Assembly: GCA_016840085.1 (NCBI GenBank)
Contig: JAEOTA010000088.1
Location: 84,517 to 148,516 of the forward strand
Direction: 5' to 3'
DNA from: Promethearchaeota archaeon
Lineage (GTDB): Archaea > Asgardarchaeota > Lokiarchaeia > Sigyniarchaeales > SOKP01
DNA: 64,000 nucleotides
Shown: positions 17,978 to 64,000 of the stretch, one piece after another
Numbering within the stretch: the stretch's first letter is position 1
Layout: the number at the start of each line of letters is the position of its first letter
Notes under the pieces: model-generated
What the model was told of the DNA's origin: nothing
Databases searched by the model: none
Seen by the model: only the letters and a program-made list of their open reading frames with translations
Translations under genes and position numbers: made by a program

Positions 17978-19855
17978 ATGACATTGAATGCTAATATGTT
18001 GAAAAGAGAAAGAGTCCTGTTAATTTCTGTGATGATCATTCTCTCTTTTGCTCAAATCTTATTTATTTCAAATGATTCTGATTTGAATTATCTCACTCAT
18101 GATGAAATAAAAGATCCAAGATATTCTGCTAGTGTAGAAGGAATAGAAAATATCATTATTACAAAAATCATTAGAATAGCAAATATTAGTAGGTGTGGTT
18201 TAGTAAATTTTGAAGATTATATAACATTTAAAAATTTAAATAATAATCCAATTACATCAATTTTTATAGGAATTCCATTGAATTATTCAGATGATTTAGT
18301 TTATTATGCAGCTACTGGAATTGATAAGAATACTTTACTAATTGAACGTTCACATTTAATTATGGAAGATTTTGAAATAATAACGATATACCTTGACTCT
18401 CCTCTTTTACCTTATCAAACAAAATCAGTTATTTTCAATCATCACTATAAAAACCTTGTAACTTATCATATAGAATATACTCCGGAAGGAACTCCTAATC
18501 AATACCATACTTTCAATGGTTTTGTTTATCCTACTTTACCATATAAATTAGAAAAAGAAGTAGATGCACGATTTTTTGTACCAAGAAGAATGGGCGATTT
18601 AGAAGGCGGTTGGGGTTGGGAAGATCCAGAGAAACTTAATGTTCGATATCAGTTCTCATCTATTGAGGACGAATTTAAAGATGAGTTCATTGCACCTTTT
18701 TTAGAAAATTTAAATAATAAAAAAATAATTAATATTTCTTTCTTTCATAACGAATTTACTCGGTTAGATGTAGAGGAAATTAATCGAGAAATATACATTT
18801 CACCATGGGGGATCATTGAAGTTAAAGAAGATTATACCATCAAGAATTTTGGAGCTATAGATCTTAATTCTTTTACACTAAATTTGCCACGTTCTGCTAG
18901 AAAAATTTATGTTTCAGATAATTTTGGTGAAATCCCATTCTCTAAAACAGAAGGCAATTTAAAATACAAAGAGATAACAATTAAATTAATAGAAAATCGA
19001 GTGAAATTAACGCCAAATTCTTCTTTTACTTTTAATCTCAGATATTTTTTACCTTTTGAAAACTATTATTCAATGAATTGGATTCAAGAATCAATTGAAA
19101 TTGATCTATTAACTTCAAATTTTGAATATTTAGGGAGACAGCAAATTATTAAAATAATTATTGATGGATGTTATAGAATTGATTCTATATCTGAACCGCC
19201 CGAATCAATTGAAAAAGCTAATGGAGCTACTGTTTTAATTTATAGTTCTAATTATGTGTCTCCTCTAGAAACTAAATTTATTCAATTTACATTTACACTA
19301 GATCTATTTGATTTACTTTTAAGACCTATTATAATTTTACTTTTAATTTCTATAATTCTAACATCATATGTATTAGTAGTAAAATTAAGAAAAAAAGGGA
19401 CAGAATCACCTCTATTAAAAAAAGAATACATTCCTGTAAATGAAATTCGAGAATTCTGTTCTTTACATGAGGAAAAAAATGCCTTAATCTTAGAGATTAG
19501 ACAAGCAGAAGAGGATTCAAAACGTAAAAAAATAGCAAAAAAGAATTACAAGAATATTTTAAATAAAAATACTTCAAAAATAGATGAAATACAAAAAGAA
19601 ATAGTTCCATTTAAAAAAACCCTAATAGAAACAAGTGAAACTTTCGAAAATATCGTAAAAAAACTAGATATCTTAGAAGCGGAGCAAATTAGTATTAAAG
19701 ACAGCTTAAATCTTTTAGAAGCCCGTTATAAAAGGGGTAGATTACCTTCTAGAGCAGCCTATTTGAAATTATCTGATGATTTCAATAAAAGAAGAAGAAA
19801 AATAGACAGAACTATTGATAAATTTATTCAGCAATTAAGGAGTTATCTTTTATAG
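17978..19855 (+). CDS. Ribophorin I (OST1)-like oligosaccharyltransferase subunit
   Basis: N-terminal signal, REIYISPWGIIEVKEDY and LPRSARKIYVSDNFGEI resemble ribophorin I motifs; one TM then coiled-coil cytoplasmic tail. Confidence 0.8.
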   Translation: MTLNANMLKRERVLLISVMIILSFAQILFISNDSDLNYLTHDEIKDPRYSASVEGIENIIITKIIRIANISRCGLVNFEDYITFKNLNNNPITSIFIGIPLNYSDDLVYYAATGIDKNTLLIERSHLIMEDFEIITIYLDSPLLPYQTKSVIFNHHYKNLVTYHIEYTPEGTPNQYHTFNGFVYPTLPYKLEKEVDARFFVPRRMGDLEGGWGWEDPEKLNVRYQFSSIEDEFKDEFIAPFLENLNNKKIINISFFHNEFTRLDVEEINREIYISPWGIIEVKEDYTIKNFGAIDLNSFTLNLPRSARKIYVSDNFGEIPFSKTEGNLKYKEITIKLIENRVKLTPNSSFTFNLRYFLPFENYYSMNWIQESIEIDLLTSNFEYLGRQQIIKIIIDGCYRIDSISEPPESIEKANGATVLIYSSNYVSPLETKFIQFTFTLDLFDLLLRPIIILLLISIILTSYVLVVKLRKKGTESPLLKKEYIPVNEIREFCSLHEEKNALILEIRQAEEDSKRKKIAKKNYKNILNKNTSKIDEIQKEIVPFKKTLIETSETFENIVKKLDILEAEQISIKDSLNLLEARYKRGRLPSRAAYLKLSDDFNKRRRKIDRTIDKFIQQLRSYLL

Positions 19856-23622: not shown

Positions 23623-24999
23623 ATGATTCCATTATCGGATTTAAATTGGGGTTTTCTGCAAATCTTATTTTTAATAATTATTTTTTTAGCGGGTTTTTTT
23701 ATTACCTATTTTATTCTCCCCTATATCATGAATTTAATGAAGAAAAAAGGTTATGTTGGTTATGATATTCATAAAAACGCTAGACCCGAAATTCCAGAAT
23801 CTGGAGGGCTTAGTATAGTTATTGCTTTTACTGTTACAACAATACTCTTAATGATCTTCTTTATTGATTTTTTTAATGAAATCTTAATTTTTCTTTTGAC
23901 AGTTTTACTAGCAGCAGCCATCGGGTTTATTGATGACCGTAAAAAGCTTAGATCACGATATAAAATAATTTTATCTATTTTCACGGGAATTCCAATTTTT
24001 TTAGCTAATTATAGTAATTTTGTAAATATCTCTTCTCCAATTATTCCTCTCCTTGATAGAACAAGATTGACTATTATTTACCCATTATTAATTCCTATAA
24101 TTATTGCTATTTCTACAAATACTGTAAATATGTTAGAAGGCTATAATGGTGAAGGTTCAGGAACTTGTTTGATAGCTGCTTGTTTTCTTCTTATCTGTAG
24201 TATTATATGGGATTCCACTGAGGGAATATTATTCACTATACCAGTTATCGCAGTTTTAATTCCCTTTTTTATATATAATAAATATCCAGCGAAAATATTC
24301 CCTGGAGATATTGGAACATTAAGTATGGGTGCGATGATAGCATGTATTATGTTATTTGGTTCACTTGAAGTTGCTACTTTTTGTGTATTACTAATTCATA
24401 TATTCAATAGTTTTTATGTTATTTATTCAGTACGAGGTTTTTTGGAAAGTGATAAAATAAGAGAAACAAAAGAAGATATTATTTTACTCGAAAATGATCA
24501 AATTAAAGCCTCTGATCAAAAGGATGCTGCTTTAACTTTACCACGATTAATTCTCGCGAAAGGACCTTTATCAGAACCAGATTTAGTTAACAATTTCCTG
24601 GCAATCTCAATAGTATGTGGTTTATTTTCAATAATCTCAGTTTTATTTACACAATTCACGATAGGGGTTTTAGAAATCATACCATTTCTTATCACATCTC
24701 TAATACTTATTGCCCCTATTGGATATTTATTATTAAAATTCCCGAGGTTAAGAGGAATAATCGTGTTAATGGTATGTTTATTAGTAGGGATAGTTATTTT
24801 TCTAATGATAGTAGAATCTCTAATTATGCCTCTTCCTCTGGGAAATATCAATCTAGGAATAATTCAACTGCCTCTTAATCTAATCGTTATTTTCCTTTTA
24901 TCTATAGTAGGGATCATAATATGGTATTATGTTACAATTAAGTATTTTTGGTATCAAATTAATGAAATGAAAATAAAAGAAATTCAAGATTCTAGATAA
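23623..24999 (+). CDS. UDP-GlcNAc:dolichol-phosphate GlcNAc-1-phosphate transferase (GPT/AglH, MraY-like)
   Basis: GYDIHK, IPESGG, GFIDD, NTVNMLEGYNG, YPAKIFPGDIG; polytopic. Confidence 0.85.
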   Translation: MIPLSDLNWGFLQILFLIIIFLAGFFITYFILPYIMNLMKKKGYVGYDIHKNARPEIPESGGLSIVIAFTVTTILLMIFFIDFFNEILIFLLTVLLAAAIGFIDDRKKLRSRYKIILSIFTGIPIFLANYSNFVNISSPIIPLLDRTRLTIIYPLLIPIIIAISTNTVNMLEGYNGEGSGTCLIAACFLLICSIIWDSTEGILFTIPVIAVLIPFFIYNKYPAKIFPGDIGTLSMGAMIACIMLFGSLEVATFCVLLIHIFNSFYVIYSVRGFLESDKIRETKEDIILLENDQIKASDQKDAALTLPRLILAKGPLSEPDLVNNFLAISIVCGLFSIISVLFTQFTIGVLEIIPFLITSLILIAPIGYLLLKFPRLRGIIVLMVCLLVGIVIFLMIVESLIMPLPLGNINLGIIQLPLNLIVIFLLSIVGIIIWYYVTIKYFWYQINEMKIKEIQDSR

Positions 25000-56904: not shown

Positions 56905-57384
56905 ATGCCTAACTGGGATTATTCATTCATTGAACAAAAATACGATAAAGAAAGGTTAGCAAAAGCTTCAGGTCGCGATCTCAGAATAAAACCCAAACAT
57001 GCTCGAGAAATCTGTGCTGTAATAAAAGGAATGAATGTAGATCGAGCTAAAAGATTTCTTGAAGCTGTAATTAACTTGAAACAATCAGTCCCATTTAGAC
57101 GACATAAGAAAAAACTTGCCCATAAAAAAGATTTAAAACAATTTAAATGGTACGCAGGAAAGTACCCTCAAAAAGCTGCAGCAAGAATCTATGAAATCCT
57201 TTCTTCTGTAGAATCTAATGGTGAATATAAAGGATTGGATATTGATATGTGTAAAATTATTCACGCAGCAGCACATAGAGGAAGAATAATAAAACGATAT
57301 ATTGAACGTGCTCGTGGACGTAGCACTGCATATTTTAAACATCTTACTCATGTAGAACTTGTAATTTACGAATTTCCAAGTTAG
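56905..57384 (+). CDS. rpl22: 50S ribosomal protein uL22
   Basis: KHAREIC, VPFRRH, GKYPQKAA, RARGR, THVELV. Confidence 0.96.
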   Translation: MPNWDYSFIEQKYDKERLAKASGRDLRIKPKHAREICAVIKGMNVDRAKRFLEAVINLKQSVPFRRHKKKLAHKKDLKQFKWYAGKYPQKAAARIYEILSSVESNGEYKGLDIDMCKIIHAAAHRGRIIKRYIERARGRSTAYFKHLTHVELVIYEFPS

Positions 57385-57474
57385 GTAAAATTATAATAAA
57401 TTATAATAATAAAATTAAAAGAATAATAAAAAATGAATTGTATTACAAATGAAAGTATTGCATTGGTGATTTAA

Positions 57475-58309
57475 TTGCCACTAGTGAAAAATTTTATAGA
57501 ACAAGGGATTAAATTGATGCAAATAAACGAATATTTGCGATCAGAATTAGTTAGAGCAGGATTCGCTGGCGTTGATGTACAAAAGACACCGCTTGGAGTG
57601 CGTATTACCCTAAGAACCTCAAGACCAGGTTTGGTCATTGGTAATTATGAGTGTCAATTCGACAATATAGCCAAAAGGGGGAAAACGCATCCAAGAGATC
57701 ACGGACGTTCTTCAAGATCGATTTGGGCTGGAAAATTAATTTCTGTCTAAGAAGTTAAGCCTATTGCCCCAGATCGAAGTCGAAGAGGTTTCTAATCCTG
57801 ATTTAAATGCTCAGATCATGGCGGAAAGATTGGCTTACAGTTTAGATAGGGGGCGTCACTATCGTAGAGCAGGTTACTACATCCTTCGCAAGATAATGGA
57901 CTCTGGTGGTGCTCTTGGCGCTGAGATTCGAATTAGTGGAAAAGTCACTAGTCAACGTGCTAGAACCCAAATATTTAGAGCAGGCACTATGACAAAAAGT
58001 GGCTTTCCTGCCCAAGAGGGTGTAGATAAGGGTGTAGCTCAATGTATTCAAAAATCAGGCGTATTGGGTATAATTGTAAAAATTTTTCACGCTGACACAA
58101 AGATGGGAGATGAAATAAAAATTAAAGAAGAACTCTTAAATCAAGCACAAGCAGAAGCTGAAGCCAAAATAGCTAAAACAAGAGCAGAGTATGTTATTGA
58201 GGAGGAAGAAACAGTAAAAAGTGAAGAAGATAGACAACTAATAGATGAAGTAGATGAAGAAGCTATTTCCGAAATTTCATTAGCTCCCGATAAAAATAAT
58301 GATAAATAG
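57475..58309 (+). CDS. rps3: 30S ribosomal protein uS3, three predicted exons: 57475-57644, 57676-57734, 57765-58309 (774 nt, 257 aa)
   Basis: Joined product reads ...[44 protein letters not shown]..., a canonical KH GxxG and uS3 sequence; position between rpl22 and rpl29. Confidence 0.9.
57645..57675 (+). other. Putative bulge-helix-bulge micro-intron 1 in rps3 (31 nt, frameshifting)
   Basis: Central helix UGGU(57639-42)/GCCA(57670-73), bulges AA^U and AA^A, inner hairpin UAUG..UGUC/GACA.UAUA; removal restores the frame. Confidence 0.82.
57735..57764 (+). other. Putative bulge-helix-bulge micro-intron 2 in rps3 (30 nt, contains in-frame stop)
   Basis: 9-bp inner stem 57736-44/57750-58; strong exon-exon stem 57719-28/57766-76; exactly 7 nt (4+3) between stems on both strands. 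Confidence 0.78.
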
Positions 58310-58339: not shown

Positions 58340-58543
58340 ATGGTTGATATATTAACTGCTGAAAAAATTAGAGAAATGGAAGAGAGGGAGGTAGAAAGAG
58401 CATTAGTTAATTTAAGAGAAGAATTAATGTTACTTTATTCAAATCAAACTGGTGGAGGAATTTCTGATAATCCATCTAAAGCAAAAATAATAAGAAAGCA
58501 AATAGCAAGAATTTTAACTGTGATGAATGAGGAAAAGCGATGA
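58340..58543 (+). CDS. rpl29: 50S ribosomal protein uL29
   Basis: IREM, LREEL, NPSKAKIIRKQIARILTV. Confidence 0.93.
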   Translation: MVDILTAEKIREMEEREVERALVNLREELMLLYSNQTGGGISDNPSKAKIIRKQIARILTVMNEEKR

Positions 58544-59204: not shown

Positions 59205-59270
59205 TTGGGGACTCGTAGAAAGCTTGGTAGGAAAAAGGTTTCTAAACCACGGACTAGTTACGGTGTGTAT
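59205..59270 (+). pseudogene. rpl14: 5' fragment of uL14 gene, truncated after ~22 codons
   Basis: Directly follows rps17 where rpl14 is expected; basic N-terminus MGTRRKLGRKKVSKPRTSYGVY, but the expected DNSGA motif is absent in all three frames downstream. Confidence 0.6.
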
Positions 59271-59358
59271 ACTTGCTATATGATATTTGAGCATTTACTC
59301 CTATTATGCATCCCTGTGCGATGGATTTTTTCTATATCATTAAGGTTCATGCAAATAT

Positions 59359-59553
59359 TCACCCAAAGATCAGCTCTCGAACATAATTTACAGTCGATAT
59401 ACCCCCATCGCTATGCAACGTAATCCCCCACTCCTTCCATTGTCGGAATTGTTTTGCTAAAAATTCAAATGTTTCTATAAAATCATCTATCGTTGTCGCA
59501 TGGGCGGTAATCCATTTATTCCTCCATATTGTTATATATATTTCTCTTGGCAT
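59359..59553 (-). CDS. Small hypothetical protein, possibly a truncated or chimeric remnant
   Basis: 64-aa ORF preceded by gaggag-like RBS; another frame carries an unrelated-looking tail (IDCKLCSRADLW...) ending near 59276. Confidence 0.45.
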   Translation of the reverse strand: MPREIYITIWRNKWITAHATTIDDFIETFEFLAKQFRQWKEWGITLHSDGGISTVNYVRELIFG

Positions 59554-59654
59554 TCTACTCCTCTCTATTTTTTTGGTCTTTTAAAATTAATATAATTGCC
59601 TACCCTTATAAAGAAAAAGCGATATGTAAAACAGAAAGAATGAATCACGAAATC

Positions 59655-59948
59655 TCATTCCAGTAATGAAACCATATATTCACTCATACTATTTTCGGTA
59701 ACTCCTAAATGGAATAATATAAAATGTAATATCTCATGGGTAAGTGTAGAAATCCACATCTGTATATCGAGATTAGATGGTTTTCCTAAAAGCATTATCC
59801 TATTTTGTGTTGGTCGTACTACTCCGTTATACTCTTTAGGAGCATATATAATCCCCTCTGAAGTATAAGAAAAAATAAACTCTCCTGAATCATGTTCCTT
59901 TTCTTTTAACTTATACGGTAAAATTTCAATATCTGCTAAATTCTTCAT
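59655..59948 (-). CDS. Small HEXXH (minimal zincin-like) protein
   Basis: ISTLTHEILHFIL followed by SEYMV. Confidence 0.55.
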   Translation of the reverse strand: MKNLADIEILPYKLKEKEHDSGEFIFSYTSEGIIYAPKEYNGVVRPTQNRIMLLGKPSNLDIQMWISTLTHEILHFILFHLGVTENSMSEYMVSLLE

Positions 59949-59968
59949 ATCTACACCATAATAGGAAT

Positions 59969-60005
59969 AAAATAATAGAAAAAAAAAGAAGTTAAAAATA
60001 ATTTT
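59969..60005. repeat. 37-bp direct repeat copy 1 (T-rich on minus strand, just after ligA stop; terminator-like)
   Basis: 34/37 identical to 62097-62133. Confidence 0.75.
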
Positions 60006-60016
60006 ACAGATTTGTT

Positions 60017-61906
60017 TTAGCCAATCATATCAAGGAACTCTTGCTCAGTAATAATCTTGGTGCCTTGGTCTTGAGCCTTTACATATTTAGCGGTCGGCTC
60101 TGTGGAATTGGTTACCAGATAGGATAAATTCTTTACTACCCCACTTTTAGCTTCTCCGCCATGCTCTTTTACCAGTTCTTCCGCTTCAGCTCGTTTCATG
60201 GTCTCAAGTTTTCCTGTAAAGCAAAACGTCATACCCTCCAATTTACCTCCCATAGTTATGCCCTCCTTTATTTTTATTTTATTGGTATCTAATACTGCTT
60301 TCATTTCAGGATAAAGTGTGTTGACACCTTCGAGTAAGTATGAGGCGGTAAGTTCCGCAAACCCGTCAACCTGCGATAATTGGTGAACAGACGCATTCTT
60401 GATTTTATCTAACGTGTCAAATCCCTCATCTACTACTCGCTGAGTCAGATCTTCTCCAATGTTTTCAATGTCAAATCCCCCAATAAATTTGGCTAACGAA
60501 ACTTCTTTTACTGCTAATAAGTTGTTTAACGCTTTTTCAGCCGAAATTTCCTTCACTTGATCAAATCGGGTTAAATCTGAGACTTTTAAGCTATATAAAT
60601 CGGCAATGGTTTTGATGTTTCCATTATCAAATAAGGGTTTCAGCATTAATTTTTCGCTGAAGTGTTTCACCTCTAATTTTTTTATCCATTTTACAATGCG
60701 ATGATACAGTCTTTTTGGGCAGGCTTGATTTGGACAATATAAGCGTGTGCCCTCATTAGTAAGAGGAGTATTACAGACTTCGCAAATAGAAGGTATTGGG
60801 ATTTCTTTAGCATCTGGTGGAGTATTTATTACTTGTTCTATTTTTGGAATAATTTCTCCTCTTTTACTGATAAATACTTCAGAACCAATTTTTATCTTAA
60901 GTTCCTCAATTAAATTAGGATTGGCTAAACTTGCCCTAGAGACATTCGTGCCCATTAATCTTACAGGATCGACAATGGCGACGGGTGTATAATTCTGGCC
61001 ACTGATACTCCACTCCACGTCTCTCAAAACGGTTTCTATCTCTTCTGCATGGAATTTAAAGGCGATTTGCTTCATGGGTCTTGTACGAGCCATATCCCCA
61101 AGGTCGATTTCTCTTCCCTTAATAACCAGTCCGTCAATATCATAGTCTAACGTGTCTCTAATATTGTTCATCACATCTTCTCTTACCTCAATAACTTCTT
61201 GCGGGGTTTTTACAGTTTTTGTTTTAATAGTGTCGAATCCCTGTTCCTTCAACCATTTTAGCTTTTGAGTTTCAGTAGTAAATACAACCTTATCAGTCGT
61301 GCTAATTGCATCATAATAGACGAGGTTCAAATCTCCGCTTCCTACACTATCTTTTCTTCTTACGAGTCCAGCCGCAGCATTTCTACAATTTTGCTTATCA
61401 GAATATCTCTTTTCAAATGTCTCATGGAAAAGTAGGATTTCAGCTCTCACTGCCCCAGTAAATGGAGCTCTTAACTTAGACACAAATCCTTTCATATTTA
61501 CGACATTCGCCGATACATCATCACCTTTTATCCCATCTCCTCTGGTAATCGCATATTGAAAGATGGCCTCTTCATACTGTAATTCGATACTAATCCCATC
61601 AAGCTTGAATTGGATAAGAAAGGTTTTATAATTCCGTTTTCGTGCCCACTTCATGAACTCTTTGGAATCAACTACTTTATCCTGAGAGGTCATTGGGATG
61701 ATATGCTCTCGCTTAGTAAATAATTCTGAACTATCCACCCCGATTTTAAATAAGATTGGATTGTCAGGATCACGTTCTCGCAGTTCATCTTCTAAAGCGT
61801 CATAATTTGCGTCGGAAATCTCTGGCTGTTCATTATAGTAGAGATATCTGTGGTGTCTAATTTCCTTAACTAGATATTTAATTCTTTCTTCCTGTCCTCT
61901 GGTCAT
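60017..61906 (-). CDS. ligA: NAD-dependent DNA ligase
   Basis: YY..QPEISDANYD, KLDG, TRGDG..G.DV, RNAAAG, DIDGLVIK, C..C...C....C zinc finger, BRCT FCFTGKL. Confidence 0.95.
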   Translation of the reverse strand: MTRGQEERIKYLVKEIRHHRYLYYNEQPEISDANYDALEDELRERDPDNPILFKIGVDSSELFTKREHIIPMTSQDKVVDSKEFMKWARKRNYKTFLIQFKLDGISIELQYEEAIFQYAITRGDGIKGDDVSANVVNMKGFVSKLRAPFTGAVRAEILLFHETFEKRYSDKQNCRNAAAGLVRRKDSVGSGDLNLVYYDAISTTDKVVFTTETQKLKWLKEQGFDTIKTKTVKTPQEVIEVREDVMNNIRDTLDYDIDGLVIKGREIDLGDMARTRPMKQIAFKFHAEEIETVLRDVEWSISGQNYTPVAIVDPVRLMGTNVSRASLANPNLIEELKIKIGSEVFISKRGEIIPKIEQVINTPPDAKEIPIPSICEVCNTPLTNEGTRLYCPNQACPKRLYHRIVKWIKKLEVKHFSEKLMLKPLFDNGNIKTIADLYSLKVSDLTRFDQVKEISAEKALNNLLAVKEVSLAKFIGGFDIENIGEDLTQRVVDEGFDTLDKIKNASVHQLSQVDGFAELTASYLLEGVNTLYPEMKAVLDTNKIKIKEGITMGGKLEGMTFCFTGKLETMKRAEAEELVKEHGGEAKSGVVKNLSYLVTNSTEPTAKYVKAQDQGTKIITEQEFLDMIG

Positions 61907-62096
61907 CTTTTACCCCTCACGAAATGAATTAAGCAGGTATGATACATAATATTTATGTTTTTTTAAATTAAAAGAGGCTTTGGAATTATTATCATTTTAA
62001 TTTGAAAATTAATGATAAATTAAAGCATTTTTAACAATAAAAATATCATATCTTAAATGTATTCCACTCTTACAAGTTATTTCTTATTTTAAAACA

Positions 62097-62133
62097 AAAA
62101 TAATAGAAAAAAAATGAAGTTAGAAATTATTTT
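62097..62133. repeat. 37-bp direct repeat copy 2 (just after stop of 62144-62572)
   Basis: 34/37 identical to 59969-60005. Confidence 0.75.
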
Positions 62134-62143
62134 TAATTATCAG

Positions 62144-62572
62144 TTATTCATATTGTCTTAAAATGGTAATAGGGCTATTACAAACGGAACATTTTTTTGC
62201 TAAGGTATCTACAACCATTTCACAATTTAAGCATATTCTTACAATTGCTCGCTTGGCTATTCCGTTGAGATCATAAATCCAATGTTCACAATTATCTTCT
62301 TTATGTTTCTTGGCGATTTGATTAAGTCTTTCTTTATTACATTCTTGTAATTCTTCAGCAGAAAACTTGGCTGTATTGTGAAGGATCTCAAGAATCAAAC
62401 TCTCTTTTTCTGCATCGTGTTTATTCAAAGAATCGAGTTCCAATGTCTTATGCTCAGAATGGGATCCTCTAAATACTTTATAAAACGCGACATAATCATA
62501 TTCTATTGGGATTTTTGTATTAACATATCTTTCTTGTGTAATATTTTGACTCATATCTTTACCAACCCTCAT
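62144..62572 (-). CDS. Hypothetical protein with C-terminal zinc ribbon
   Basis: CLNC-x9-CSVC. Confidence 0.6.
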   Translation of the reverse strand: MRVGKDMSQNITQERYVNTKIPIEYDYVAFYKVFRGSHSEHKTLELDSLNKHDAEKESLILEILHNTAKFSAEELQECNKERLNQIAKKHKEDNCEHWIYDLNGIAKRAIVRICLNCEMVVDTLAKKCSVCNSPITILRQYE

Positions 62573-62672
62573 ATTGAGTACTTAAAATGAATCTATTATA
62601 AAATTAAAAAAAATAGAGACAAGTAATTTACTAAACCAAATTAACCCTTCCAATTTATGTGATACAAAATCC

Positions 62673-63659
62673 TCATACAGCCTTCTGTAGTCCTCTATAA
62701 ATCTTTAACTTTTCTTTTATCTCTCGATACTCATCTGTGCTGATGTTATAGACAAAATTGGATTTTGGAATGAAAACTTCTCGTCCATCACTTTCGAATT
62801 TCTCAAGAGACACCTTAACTTTCTTTCGAGAAATATACCTTCTGTATATTTTATATGCATCTTGAATTTTTTGAATATCACTTTGGCTAAGCTCAGAGAA
62901 GTGATCACTATTCTTTCTCTCATGGGCGTTATACTCCTCTATTTCTCTCTCCAATAAATTCGAGATCTTAAGTGCCATACTTCTAATGCTTACAGAAGTC
63001 TGGTGAAATAGTGGTGAAAGCTGCTTTCCTATTTTCCATGTCGATACTTTAGTATATACCAAATAATAAATAATATAGATATATTTAATAACTAAAAATC
63101 TGTTCTCCTCAGTGATATACTTCTCCCCTAATTGTTGTAATATCTTTTCAGGAATAATATCACGTGGTGCTTTATTATTATGCGTTAATTCCTGATAAAT
63201 CAATCTTTTTAGATGCTTCTTATAATGATTTACCCTTTTCCCTGTGCGTAACGTCCACATGTGAAAATATAACTCTTCGTTATCTACAAATTTCTTGGTA
63301 TATTTTTCGACAACTTTACGCTTAAGTCCAAACTTATGCCCTATCGCTTCATGGGTGGGTAGTGTGTATGAAGGATTCTTCTGAAACCTTTCTTTCTCTT
63401 CTTCTATAAAAGATCGTAATTTATCCAAAATTAATTGAGGAGTTTTATCATTATGTGGATACATTCTGGCATATAAGTTAGTAGTGCTATTCTCAGGTTC
63501 TACTATTTCTTTTGCATACTTTGTTATAGTCCTTCTAGCTATTCCTAGCTCAGAATGGATGCCTCGTAATGAACGTGGCTTATATTGTGGATTTGCCAAA
63601 AATTTAGTTTTCTCTTCTTCAATAATCACTTTTAATTTATCTAAATTTTCTGAATTCAA
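62673..63659 (-). CDS. Hypothetical protein with repeated HTH-like modules
   Basis: Internal repeat LDKL...IEEEK..F..NP.Y followed by SLRGIHSELGIARRTITKY / THEAIGHKFGLKRKVVEKY. Confidence 0.6.
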   Translation of the reverse strand: MNSENLDKLKVIIEEEKTKFLANPQYKPRSLRGIHSELGIARRTITKYAKEIVEPENSTTNLYARMYPHNDKTPQLILDKLRSFIEEEKERFQKNPSYTLPTHEAIGHKFGLKRKVVEKYTKKFVDNEELYFHMWTLRTGKRVNHYKKHLKRLIYQELTHNNKAPRDIIPEKILQQLGEKYITEENRFLVIKYIYIIYYLVYTKVSTWKIGKQLSPLFHQTSVSIRSMALKISNLLEREIEEYNAHERKNSDHFSELSQSDIQKIQDAYKIYRRYISRKKVKVSLEKFESDGREVFIPKSNFVYNISTDEYREIKEKLKIYRGLQKAV

Positions 63660-63925
63660 ATCTTAATTATCCCTCCTTTTTTAAGATTAGTCCTATGTGA
63701 AAAATAATATCTTTTGGGCTATTTAAATCAGAACAATAGACCAACTTAGTAATTTGTAGGTGAACTGATATTTTCATGATCTTATTTTATCATCTCTACT
63801 ATTCTAACAAAAGAAAGAATATGAACCTATAAAAAGAAAAAAACATTTCTAAAGGAAAAGTAAGAAGGGTATGTTTTTGGGTAGTTACAAAATTAAGTGA
63901 TTGTGTTTAAATCTTTCGCTGACCT

Positions 63926-64000
63926 TCATTCTTTTTTTAGCGCGAAATACTTGTTCCAAATCTCTTGGTACTTGCCAAACCATGTATCAAGCTTCTTAAA
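63926..64000 (-). CDS. 3' end of a gene continuing beyond the window
   Basis: Open frame ...FKKLDTWFGKYQEIWNKYFALKKE*. Confidence 0.35.
   Translation of the reverse strand, partial: FKKLDTWFGKYQEIWNKYFALKKE

Follow-up and report, generated by a model that had tools for sequence, protein, structure and literature searches.

The gene for ribosomal protein uS3 (rps3) of a lokiarchaeal genome is interrupted by two short inserts that fold as relaxed bulge-helix-bulge (BHB) motifs, and its mRNA is very probably spliced twice, through cleavage by the endonuclease EndA and ligation by RtcB. The gene lies in a 64,000-nt stretch of DNA, referred to below as the window; named relatives place its host in Promethearchaeota (Lokiarchaeia), in agreement with the Asgard origin that had been predicted from the sequence.

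RESULTS

In the window, whose operon order is rps19-rpl22-rps3-rpl29-rnp1-rps17, rps3 (57475-58309) appears as two ORFs, 57475-57750 (91 aa) and 57764-58309 (181 aa), on either side of a KH segment that sits in a different frame. Alignment to intact same-genus genes confirmed the original prediction that this arrangement comes from inserts of 31 and 30 nt. Once both are removed, exons of 170, 59, and 545 nt make up 774 nt encoding a 257-aa uS3, which shows the same codons as intact relatives and aligns without a gap to an intact orthologue (P0251), with 246 of 256 residues identical. From the protein alone, several registers of the insert boundaries are possible; BHB geometry selects 57645-57675 and 57735-57764 among them, and this register, together with the gapless orthologue, bears out the junctions and exon lengths originally proposed (Table 1). 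Both inserts are letter-for-letter identical in four Logan assemblies of separate sequencing runs and are therefore not an assembly slip, and since several other lineages are interrupted at these two positions too, with compensatory changes, they are not there by chance. The gene is single copy, and a search of the genome found no second rps3, so that the possibility of a decaying duplicate, raised at the outset, becomes very improbable. Between intron 1-bearing alleles, codon differences in exon 2 are mostly synonymous (e.g., 5:0, 9:2, and 10:1) and the remainder largely conservative; judged by these codons, exon 2 is under protein-level selection and, as had been suggested, appears to be a real 59-nt internal exon.

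Table 1 Features of the rps3 locus in the window and further gene-disrupting insertions found elsewhere in the genome
Feature	Coordinates	Strand	Remarks
rpl22	56905..57384	+	Ribosomal operon gene upstream of rps3
rpl22-rps3 spacer, 90 nt	57385..57474	+	SD GGTGA at 57465-57469; part of non-native 5' block
rps3 exon 1, 170 nt	57475..57644	+	TTG start; ends within Lys codon, KH GxxG loop
Intron 1, 31 nt	57645..57675	+	Frameshifting
rps3 exon 2, 59 nt	57676..57734	+	Out of frame unless intron 1 is excised
Intron 2, 30 nt	57735..57764	+	In-frame TAA
rps3 exon 3, 545 nt	57765..58309	+	S3 C-terminal domain and acidic tail
rpl29	58340..58543	+	Gene downstream of rps3
EF-2 insertions	C4:16273-16302 and C4:16144-16173		Gene-disrupting, census
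Ras/Rab-like GTPase insertion	C24:30582-30611		Gene-disrupting, census
AMP-binding enzyme insertion	C6:13999-14028		Gene-disrupting, census
AMP phosphorylase insertion	C9:138211-138240		Gene-disrupting, census
ThiF/E1 insertion	C78:56825-56854		Gene-disrupting, census
E2 insertion	C78:52861-52890		Gene-disrupting, census
88-aa protein insertion	C51:58189-58218		Gene-disrupting, census; second intron probably behind
76-aa zinc-ribbon protein insertion	C49:155064-155094		Gene-disrupting, census

Each insert had been described as a hairpin with the 4+3 spacing of a BHB. Both are indeed BHBs, of the relaxed type; we class them so because the exon-exon outer helix of intron 1 is weak and the central helix of intron 2 has two of four standard pairs. 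In intron 1, the 4-bp central helix (57639-42 with 57670-73; pair probability about 0.9) is perfect; the bulges are at 57643-45 and 57674-76, and the inner stem contains one bulged base. Intron 2 has a perfect 9-bp stem (57736-44 with 57750-58; z about -4) and a strong outer helix (57725-28 with 57766-69); its central helix (57729-32 with 57759-62) reaches three of four standard pairs in the alleles L025, L038, and L271 and is unformed in the computed ensemble. Cutting after the second base of the bulge restores an uninterrupted rps3. Across eight distinct intron 2 sequences, 88% of cells are paired, compared with 29-64% in slid controls, and nine pairs show change on both sides, among them eight of the nine stem pairs and one exon-intron pair that is G-C or, with a synonymous change in the exon, A-U; covariation in intron 1 is weaker (79% paired, five pairs with two-sided change), and because the sequences compared are related, the shuffle figures are not probabilities. 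Placing intron 2 in a register 2 nt upstream gives three invariant central pairs and zero covariation, and its exact cut position is slightly uncertain; at this site the insert length is 29 or 30 nt among alleles and the junction is fixed. In these comparisons, the introns keep their structure while their sequence varies freely.

The 5' half of rps3 is interrupted in 7 of the 51 same-genus genomes with a match and uninterrupted in the other 44. Readable interrupted alleles have inserts at exactly the two sites of the window, with other sequences and the same BHB fold, so the alignment of relatives called for by the original prediction returned both the sites and compensatory change. The intron 1 site is occupied in L025/L266, L038/L039, L105, L258, L267, and L271, and the intron 2 site in L021/L261, L025/L266, L038, L039, L078, L105, L258, and L271 (29 nt); intron 1 stands alone in L267 and intron 2 alone in L021/L261 and L078, and both are present in the window, L258, L038, L039, L025/L266, L105, and L271. 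L105 has a third rps3 intron (L105:9704-9733), a 30-nt BHB insert after codon 7 that adjoins the end of a native rps3 remnant and, being in frame and stop-free, is not visible to gene callers. On a tree of the rps3 3' part, intron presence takes eight changes for ten rows, and good branch support makes at least seven of them unavoidable; the tree of the block around the introns requires six. In G024 (L009/L071), an N gap spans the rps3 5' half, and G032 has no match there, as would be expected if strains differ in this block.

Strains that are 97-100% identical in the rps3 3' part carry zero, one, or two introns. This variation, with the 44 uninterrupted genomes, leaves unsupported the original proposal of a link, through the introns, between ribosome synthesis and tRNA-splicing capacity. 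A conserved regulatory role is unlikely because intron presence or absence varies within species; tolerated or selfish passengers suit the data better than a conserved switch, and the pattern points to lateral spread rather than regulation. Exon haplotypes around the intron sites switch in short tracts, and a species 77% identical downstream has exon 2 in common at 97%. L271, with two introns, and L272-L277, with none, are identical from about 35 nt past intron 2, whereas their 5' parts differ throughout, even in the start codon. Of 55 alleles that begin with the native ATG-AGT, none has an intron (a set that includes kin and is not a set of independent cases), and intron alleles with a readable 5' end nearly all start with TTG, CTG, or GTG, mostly behind GGTGA, the exception being L078. 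The rpl22-rps3 spacer is shorter than 80 nt in native alleles; in intron-bearing alleles it is longer, or foreign DNA stands there. L266 has a decayed copy of the native 5' part that stops 1 nt past the intron 1 site and is followed by the full intron-bearing gene; in L105, the native remnant stops 9 nt past the third-intron site, 2.6 kb before the gene; and in G003, foreign DNA has replaced the native rps3 start. A native remnant with a restored gene bearing a foreign 5' part is thus seen in the relatives L266/L025 and L105, and the window itself has the foreign-type 5' block alone, with no native remnant. The rps3 5' block has recombined laterally between strains and species, and what is new is that introns polymorphic within species travel on this foreign block with its own start.

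By analogy with a Caldiarchaeum tRNA gene (PMC3293823), an integrating element may have been the vehicle of intron spread, a suggestion we put forward tentatively and at somewhat less than even chances. DNA between the native remnant and rps3 gave no Pfam match to an integrase or recombinase. A search of IMG/VR for a viral copy of the rps3 cassette yielded one contig alone (L281:7666-7871), a bacterial HK97-like phage joined to a Loki rps3 fragment, which looks chimeric. A present function of the intron as a sequence-specific recombinase site was rejected, as the stems are without common sequence. All rps3 introns found are 29-31 nt and none holds a homing-endonuclease ORF (forms longer than about 500 nt would escape the search); group I or group II self-splicing was also rejected, the inserts being 30-31 nt against a ribozyme core of more than 150 nt.

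Other disruptions of ribosomal-protein genes were observed. At three loci (L261:1-9589, L035:8320-9770, and L107:2020-9770), 1.4 to >9.7 kb of unrelated DNA, including an ORF of about 3,000 aa without a Pfam match, lies between rpl22 and rps3, which there starts with TTG, ATC, or ACG behind a new SD. In the 59205-64000 part of the window, the match of rpl14 to its orthologue ends after about codon 21-24 (~59265), and foreign-looking DNA follows, with an NAD-dependent DNA ligase (60017-61906), a DUF6782-like gene, and unknowns; the operon picks up again on contig C32, right at the end of rps14 and rps8. The foreign DNA at rpl14 probably represents elements inserted in ribosomal-protein genes. 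Relatives have 29-31-nt BHB-like inserts in rps8, at two different sites, and in a gene for a 99-aa membrane protein (L053:4049-4077; L050; L095:~18430-18460; L034:991-1020; L104:~6180). In L095, a stray rps8 5' remnant precedes rpl14, and in L058 (13897-14043), rps8 stops at codon 49, which is two codons beyond the intron site of L053, and is followed by unrelated genes on the opposite strand.

For a census independent of RNA shape, proteins of the same-genus genome G006 (2.8 of 3.3 Mb) were compared with this genome (G000), making about 1,400 orthologues comparable; the reverse comparison, of G000 proteins with G006, covered about three quarters, and intron counts are therefore minima. Gene-disrupting insertions in the census are 30-31 nt long (Table 1). 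The eight best supported (24-36-nt range, including the two in rps3) have a BHB fit of 18-21, compared with 8-18 for 35 ordinary in-frame indels (p = 7e-6). The usual build is 1 nt, a 9-bp stem, a 5-nt loop, a 9-nt return strand, a 4-nt exon partner, and 2 nt (1+9+5+9+4+2). The intron sequences are unrelated to each other, and no donor for them was found inside the genome. In EF-2, a stop-containing +30-nt insert is present in 16 other genus genomes and the gene is intact in 33. G006 has at least two BHB introns of its own, of 28 nt (C1:1129379-1129406) and 30 nt (C1:1621948-1621977), both in protein genes whose G000 counterparts are uninterrupted. De novo scans of the genome for the BHB shape were discarded, as chance matches swamped them at 30% GC and shifted controls gave equal counts; for this reason we used homology-based calls alone. 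The genome's tRNA genes have introns of the same size as the mRNA inserts. The clearest is tRNA-Sec (C32:24425-24535), upstream of a SepSecS-like gene; the T-loop of this tRNA contains a canonical BHB intron of 30 nt (about 24483-24512), and ARAGORN calls tRNA-SeC once the intron is removed. ARAGORN called 13 tRNAs in the genome, several of them mis-assigned, and many tRNA genes are 100-135 nt long, with non-canonical introns of 28-31 nt. The best reading of these comparisons is that the rps3 introns belong to a set of about ten or more stereotyped BHB-type introns of 29-31 nt in the mRNAs and tRNAs of the genome; the expectation that such introns lie hidden genome-wide as stops or frameshifts was borne out by about ten more cases.

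RtcB is intact (C83:46555-47862). The one EndA in the assembly (C79:3618-4223) is without the catalytic Tyr and His of the Methanocaldococcus jannaschii enzyme and, on these residues, appears to be the structural, non-catalytic beta type. Searches of this assembly with Pfam, regular expressions, tblastn, and a custom HMM reading through stops found no EndA alpha; its absence is likely due to an assembly gap, because other essential genes are also missing (the assembly is without most of uL14, uL24, eS4, and uL5). Most genus genomes carry two EndA paralogues, and the alpha type, which scores more strongly, is in nearly all that were searched. Asgard EndA is reported to be an (alpha-beta)2 enzyme with an L1 loop linked to relaxed-BHB cleavage (PMC5829648). 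We would give a small chance to splicing by another nuclease or route: the missing alpha subunit, the relaxed motifs, and the unusually uniform build could be taken that way, but geometry and cut positions all conform to the EndA rule, the genome has tRNA introns of the same build, and alpha-type paralogues are nearly universal among the genus genomes searched.

Translational recoding, in which the ribosome would hop or frameshift over the inserts as in the bypass of T4 gene 60, is less probable again. Intron 2 does start with a stop codon in a hairpin, as recoding might have it, but matched take-off and landing codons are absent, there is no early stop in intron 1, the three insert lengths (29, 30, and 31 nt) would call for three separate kinds of event, and the covariation of exon-intron pairing is not predicted by hopping. 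It is very improbable that the 91-aa and 181-aa polypeptides form uS3 without the middle segment; gene callers report both ORFs and a TTG opens the 3' one, yet the GxxG loop and the next KH helix would be lost, and exon 2 is conserved at the protein level in intron-bearing alleles. A decaying pseudogene or assembly artefact, suggested by the 7.6% contamination of the MAG and the gaps in the same operon, is equally improbable and effectively refuted already by the single copy, the identity in four runs, and the use of the same sites, with compensatory change, in unrelated lineages.

No spliced rps3 transcript was found in JGI contigs, which is expected because these are assembled contigs, mostly of DNA. 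Intron-free near-twins (P0249, P0259, P0271, and P0125) were rejected as spliced cDNA and are alleles, because the flanking haplotype differs in every one; P0182, also rejected, is a contig-end fragment of an intron-free gene.

DISCUSSION

Splicing by EndA and RtcB is the explanation that we favour for rps3. The operon transcript would fold two intron hairpins, each docking on the exon by a central helix of 4 nt flanked by two bulges of 3 nt; a heterotetrameric (alpha-beta)2 EndA would cut every bulge after its second base, and RtcB would join the exons for translation into the 257-aa uS3. Recombination of the rps3 5' block would spread the introns between strains and species. Of the double mRNA splicing originally predicted, the two BHB introns have gained comparative evidence, and the splicing itself is what we infer from them. 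In a broader scenario, the tRNA machinery of Lokiarchaeia would splice many essential mRNAs (ribosome, EF-2, ubiquitin E1/E2, and small GTPases), and introns would arrive on integrating elements bearing a replacement 5' gene half, with the intron at or beside the crossover; multi-exon protein genes would then be arising through mobile DNA among the closest relatives of eukaryotes. This scenario is on balance doubtful, a shade more so than the vehicle by itself.

If the splicing reading is right, the mRNA of a universal ribosomal protein has to be spliced twice, and about ten further genes, of which several are eukaryote-like, likewise depend on splicing; Asgard archaea would have multi-exon protein genes and routine mRNA splicing without a spliceosome. 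This would bear on the origin of exon-intron gene structure and on that of endonuclease/RtcB mRNA splicing of the IRE1-XBP1 type, an analogous system. Mis-calling of intron-bearing genes as split genes or pseudogenes affects phylogenies built on marker genes, as well as inventories of eukaryotic signature proteins. Strains with zero, one, or two introns and visible recombination tracts make the arrival of archaeal introns directly testable.

In the open-access literature searched, one coding gene (cbf5) and one 5' UTR are the confirmed cases of mRNA splicing in archaea, and we found no Asgard mRNA introns there. Asgard tRNA genes have non-canonical introns with repeated gains (PMC11291895; bioRxiv 10.64898/2026.10.13.758758); they share lineage and motif with the rps3 introns, and the tRNA introns of this genome are of the same size, but both reports concern tRNA genes alone, and we found nothing on mRNA introns in either. 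In Caldiarchaeum tRNA-Thr, an intron was gained by an integrating element (Sugahara 2012, PMC3293823). As in rps3, populations vary in intron number, and as in L266 and L105, a native 5' fragment lies upstream of a restored, intron-richer gene; unlike rps3, the gene is for a tRNA rather than a protein, and no recombinase or integrase was found between the remnant and rps3. The 46-nt intron in the 5' UTR of Haloferax HVO_1309 (PMC7714728) is, like those of rps3, in an mRNA substrate of EndA with a BHB, but it lies in an untranslated region and leaves the reading frame unbroken. The closest precedent in a coding sequence is the BHB intron in the cbf5 pre-mRNA of Crenarchaeota (Watanabe 2002; Yoshinari 2006; Yokobori 2009, PMC2738675); introns in protein genes other than cbf5 were predicted only (PMC2738675). 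Splicing of cbf5 was demonstrated by cDNA, whereas that of rps3 is predicted here from sequence. The cbf5 case concerns the pre-mRNA of one gene; here, a universal ribosomal-protein gene has two introns (three in L105) and an internal exon of 59 nt, splicing in an Asgard host would affect about ten or more genes per genome, and the introns vary in presence and absence within species.
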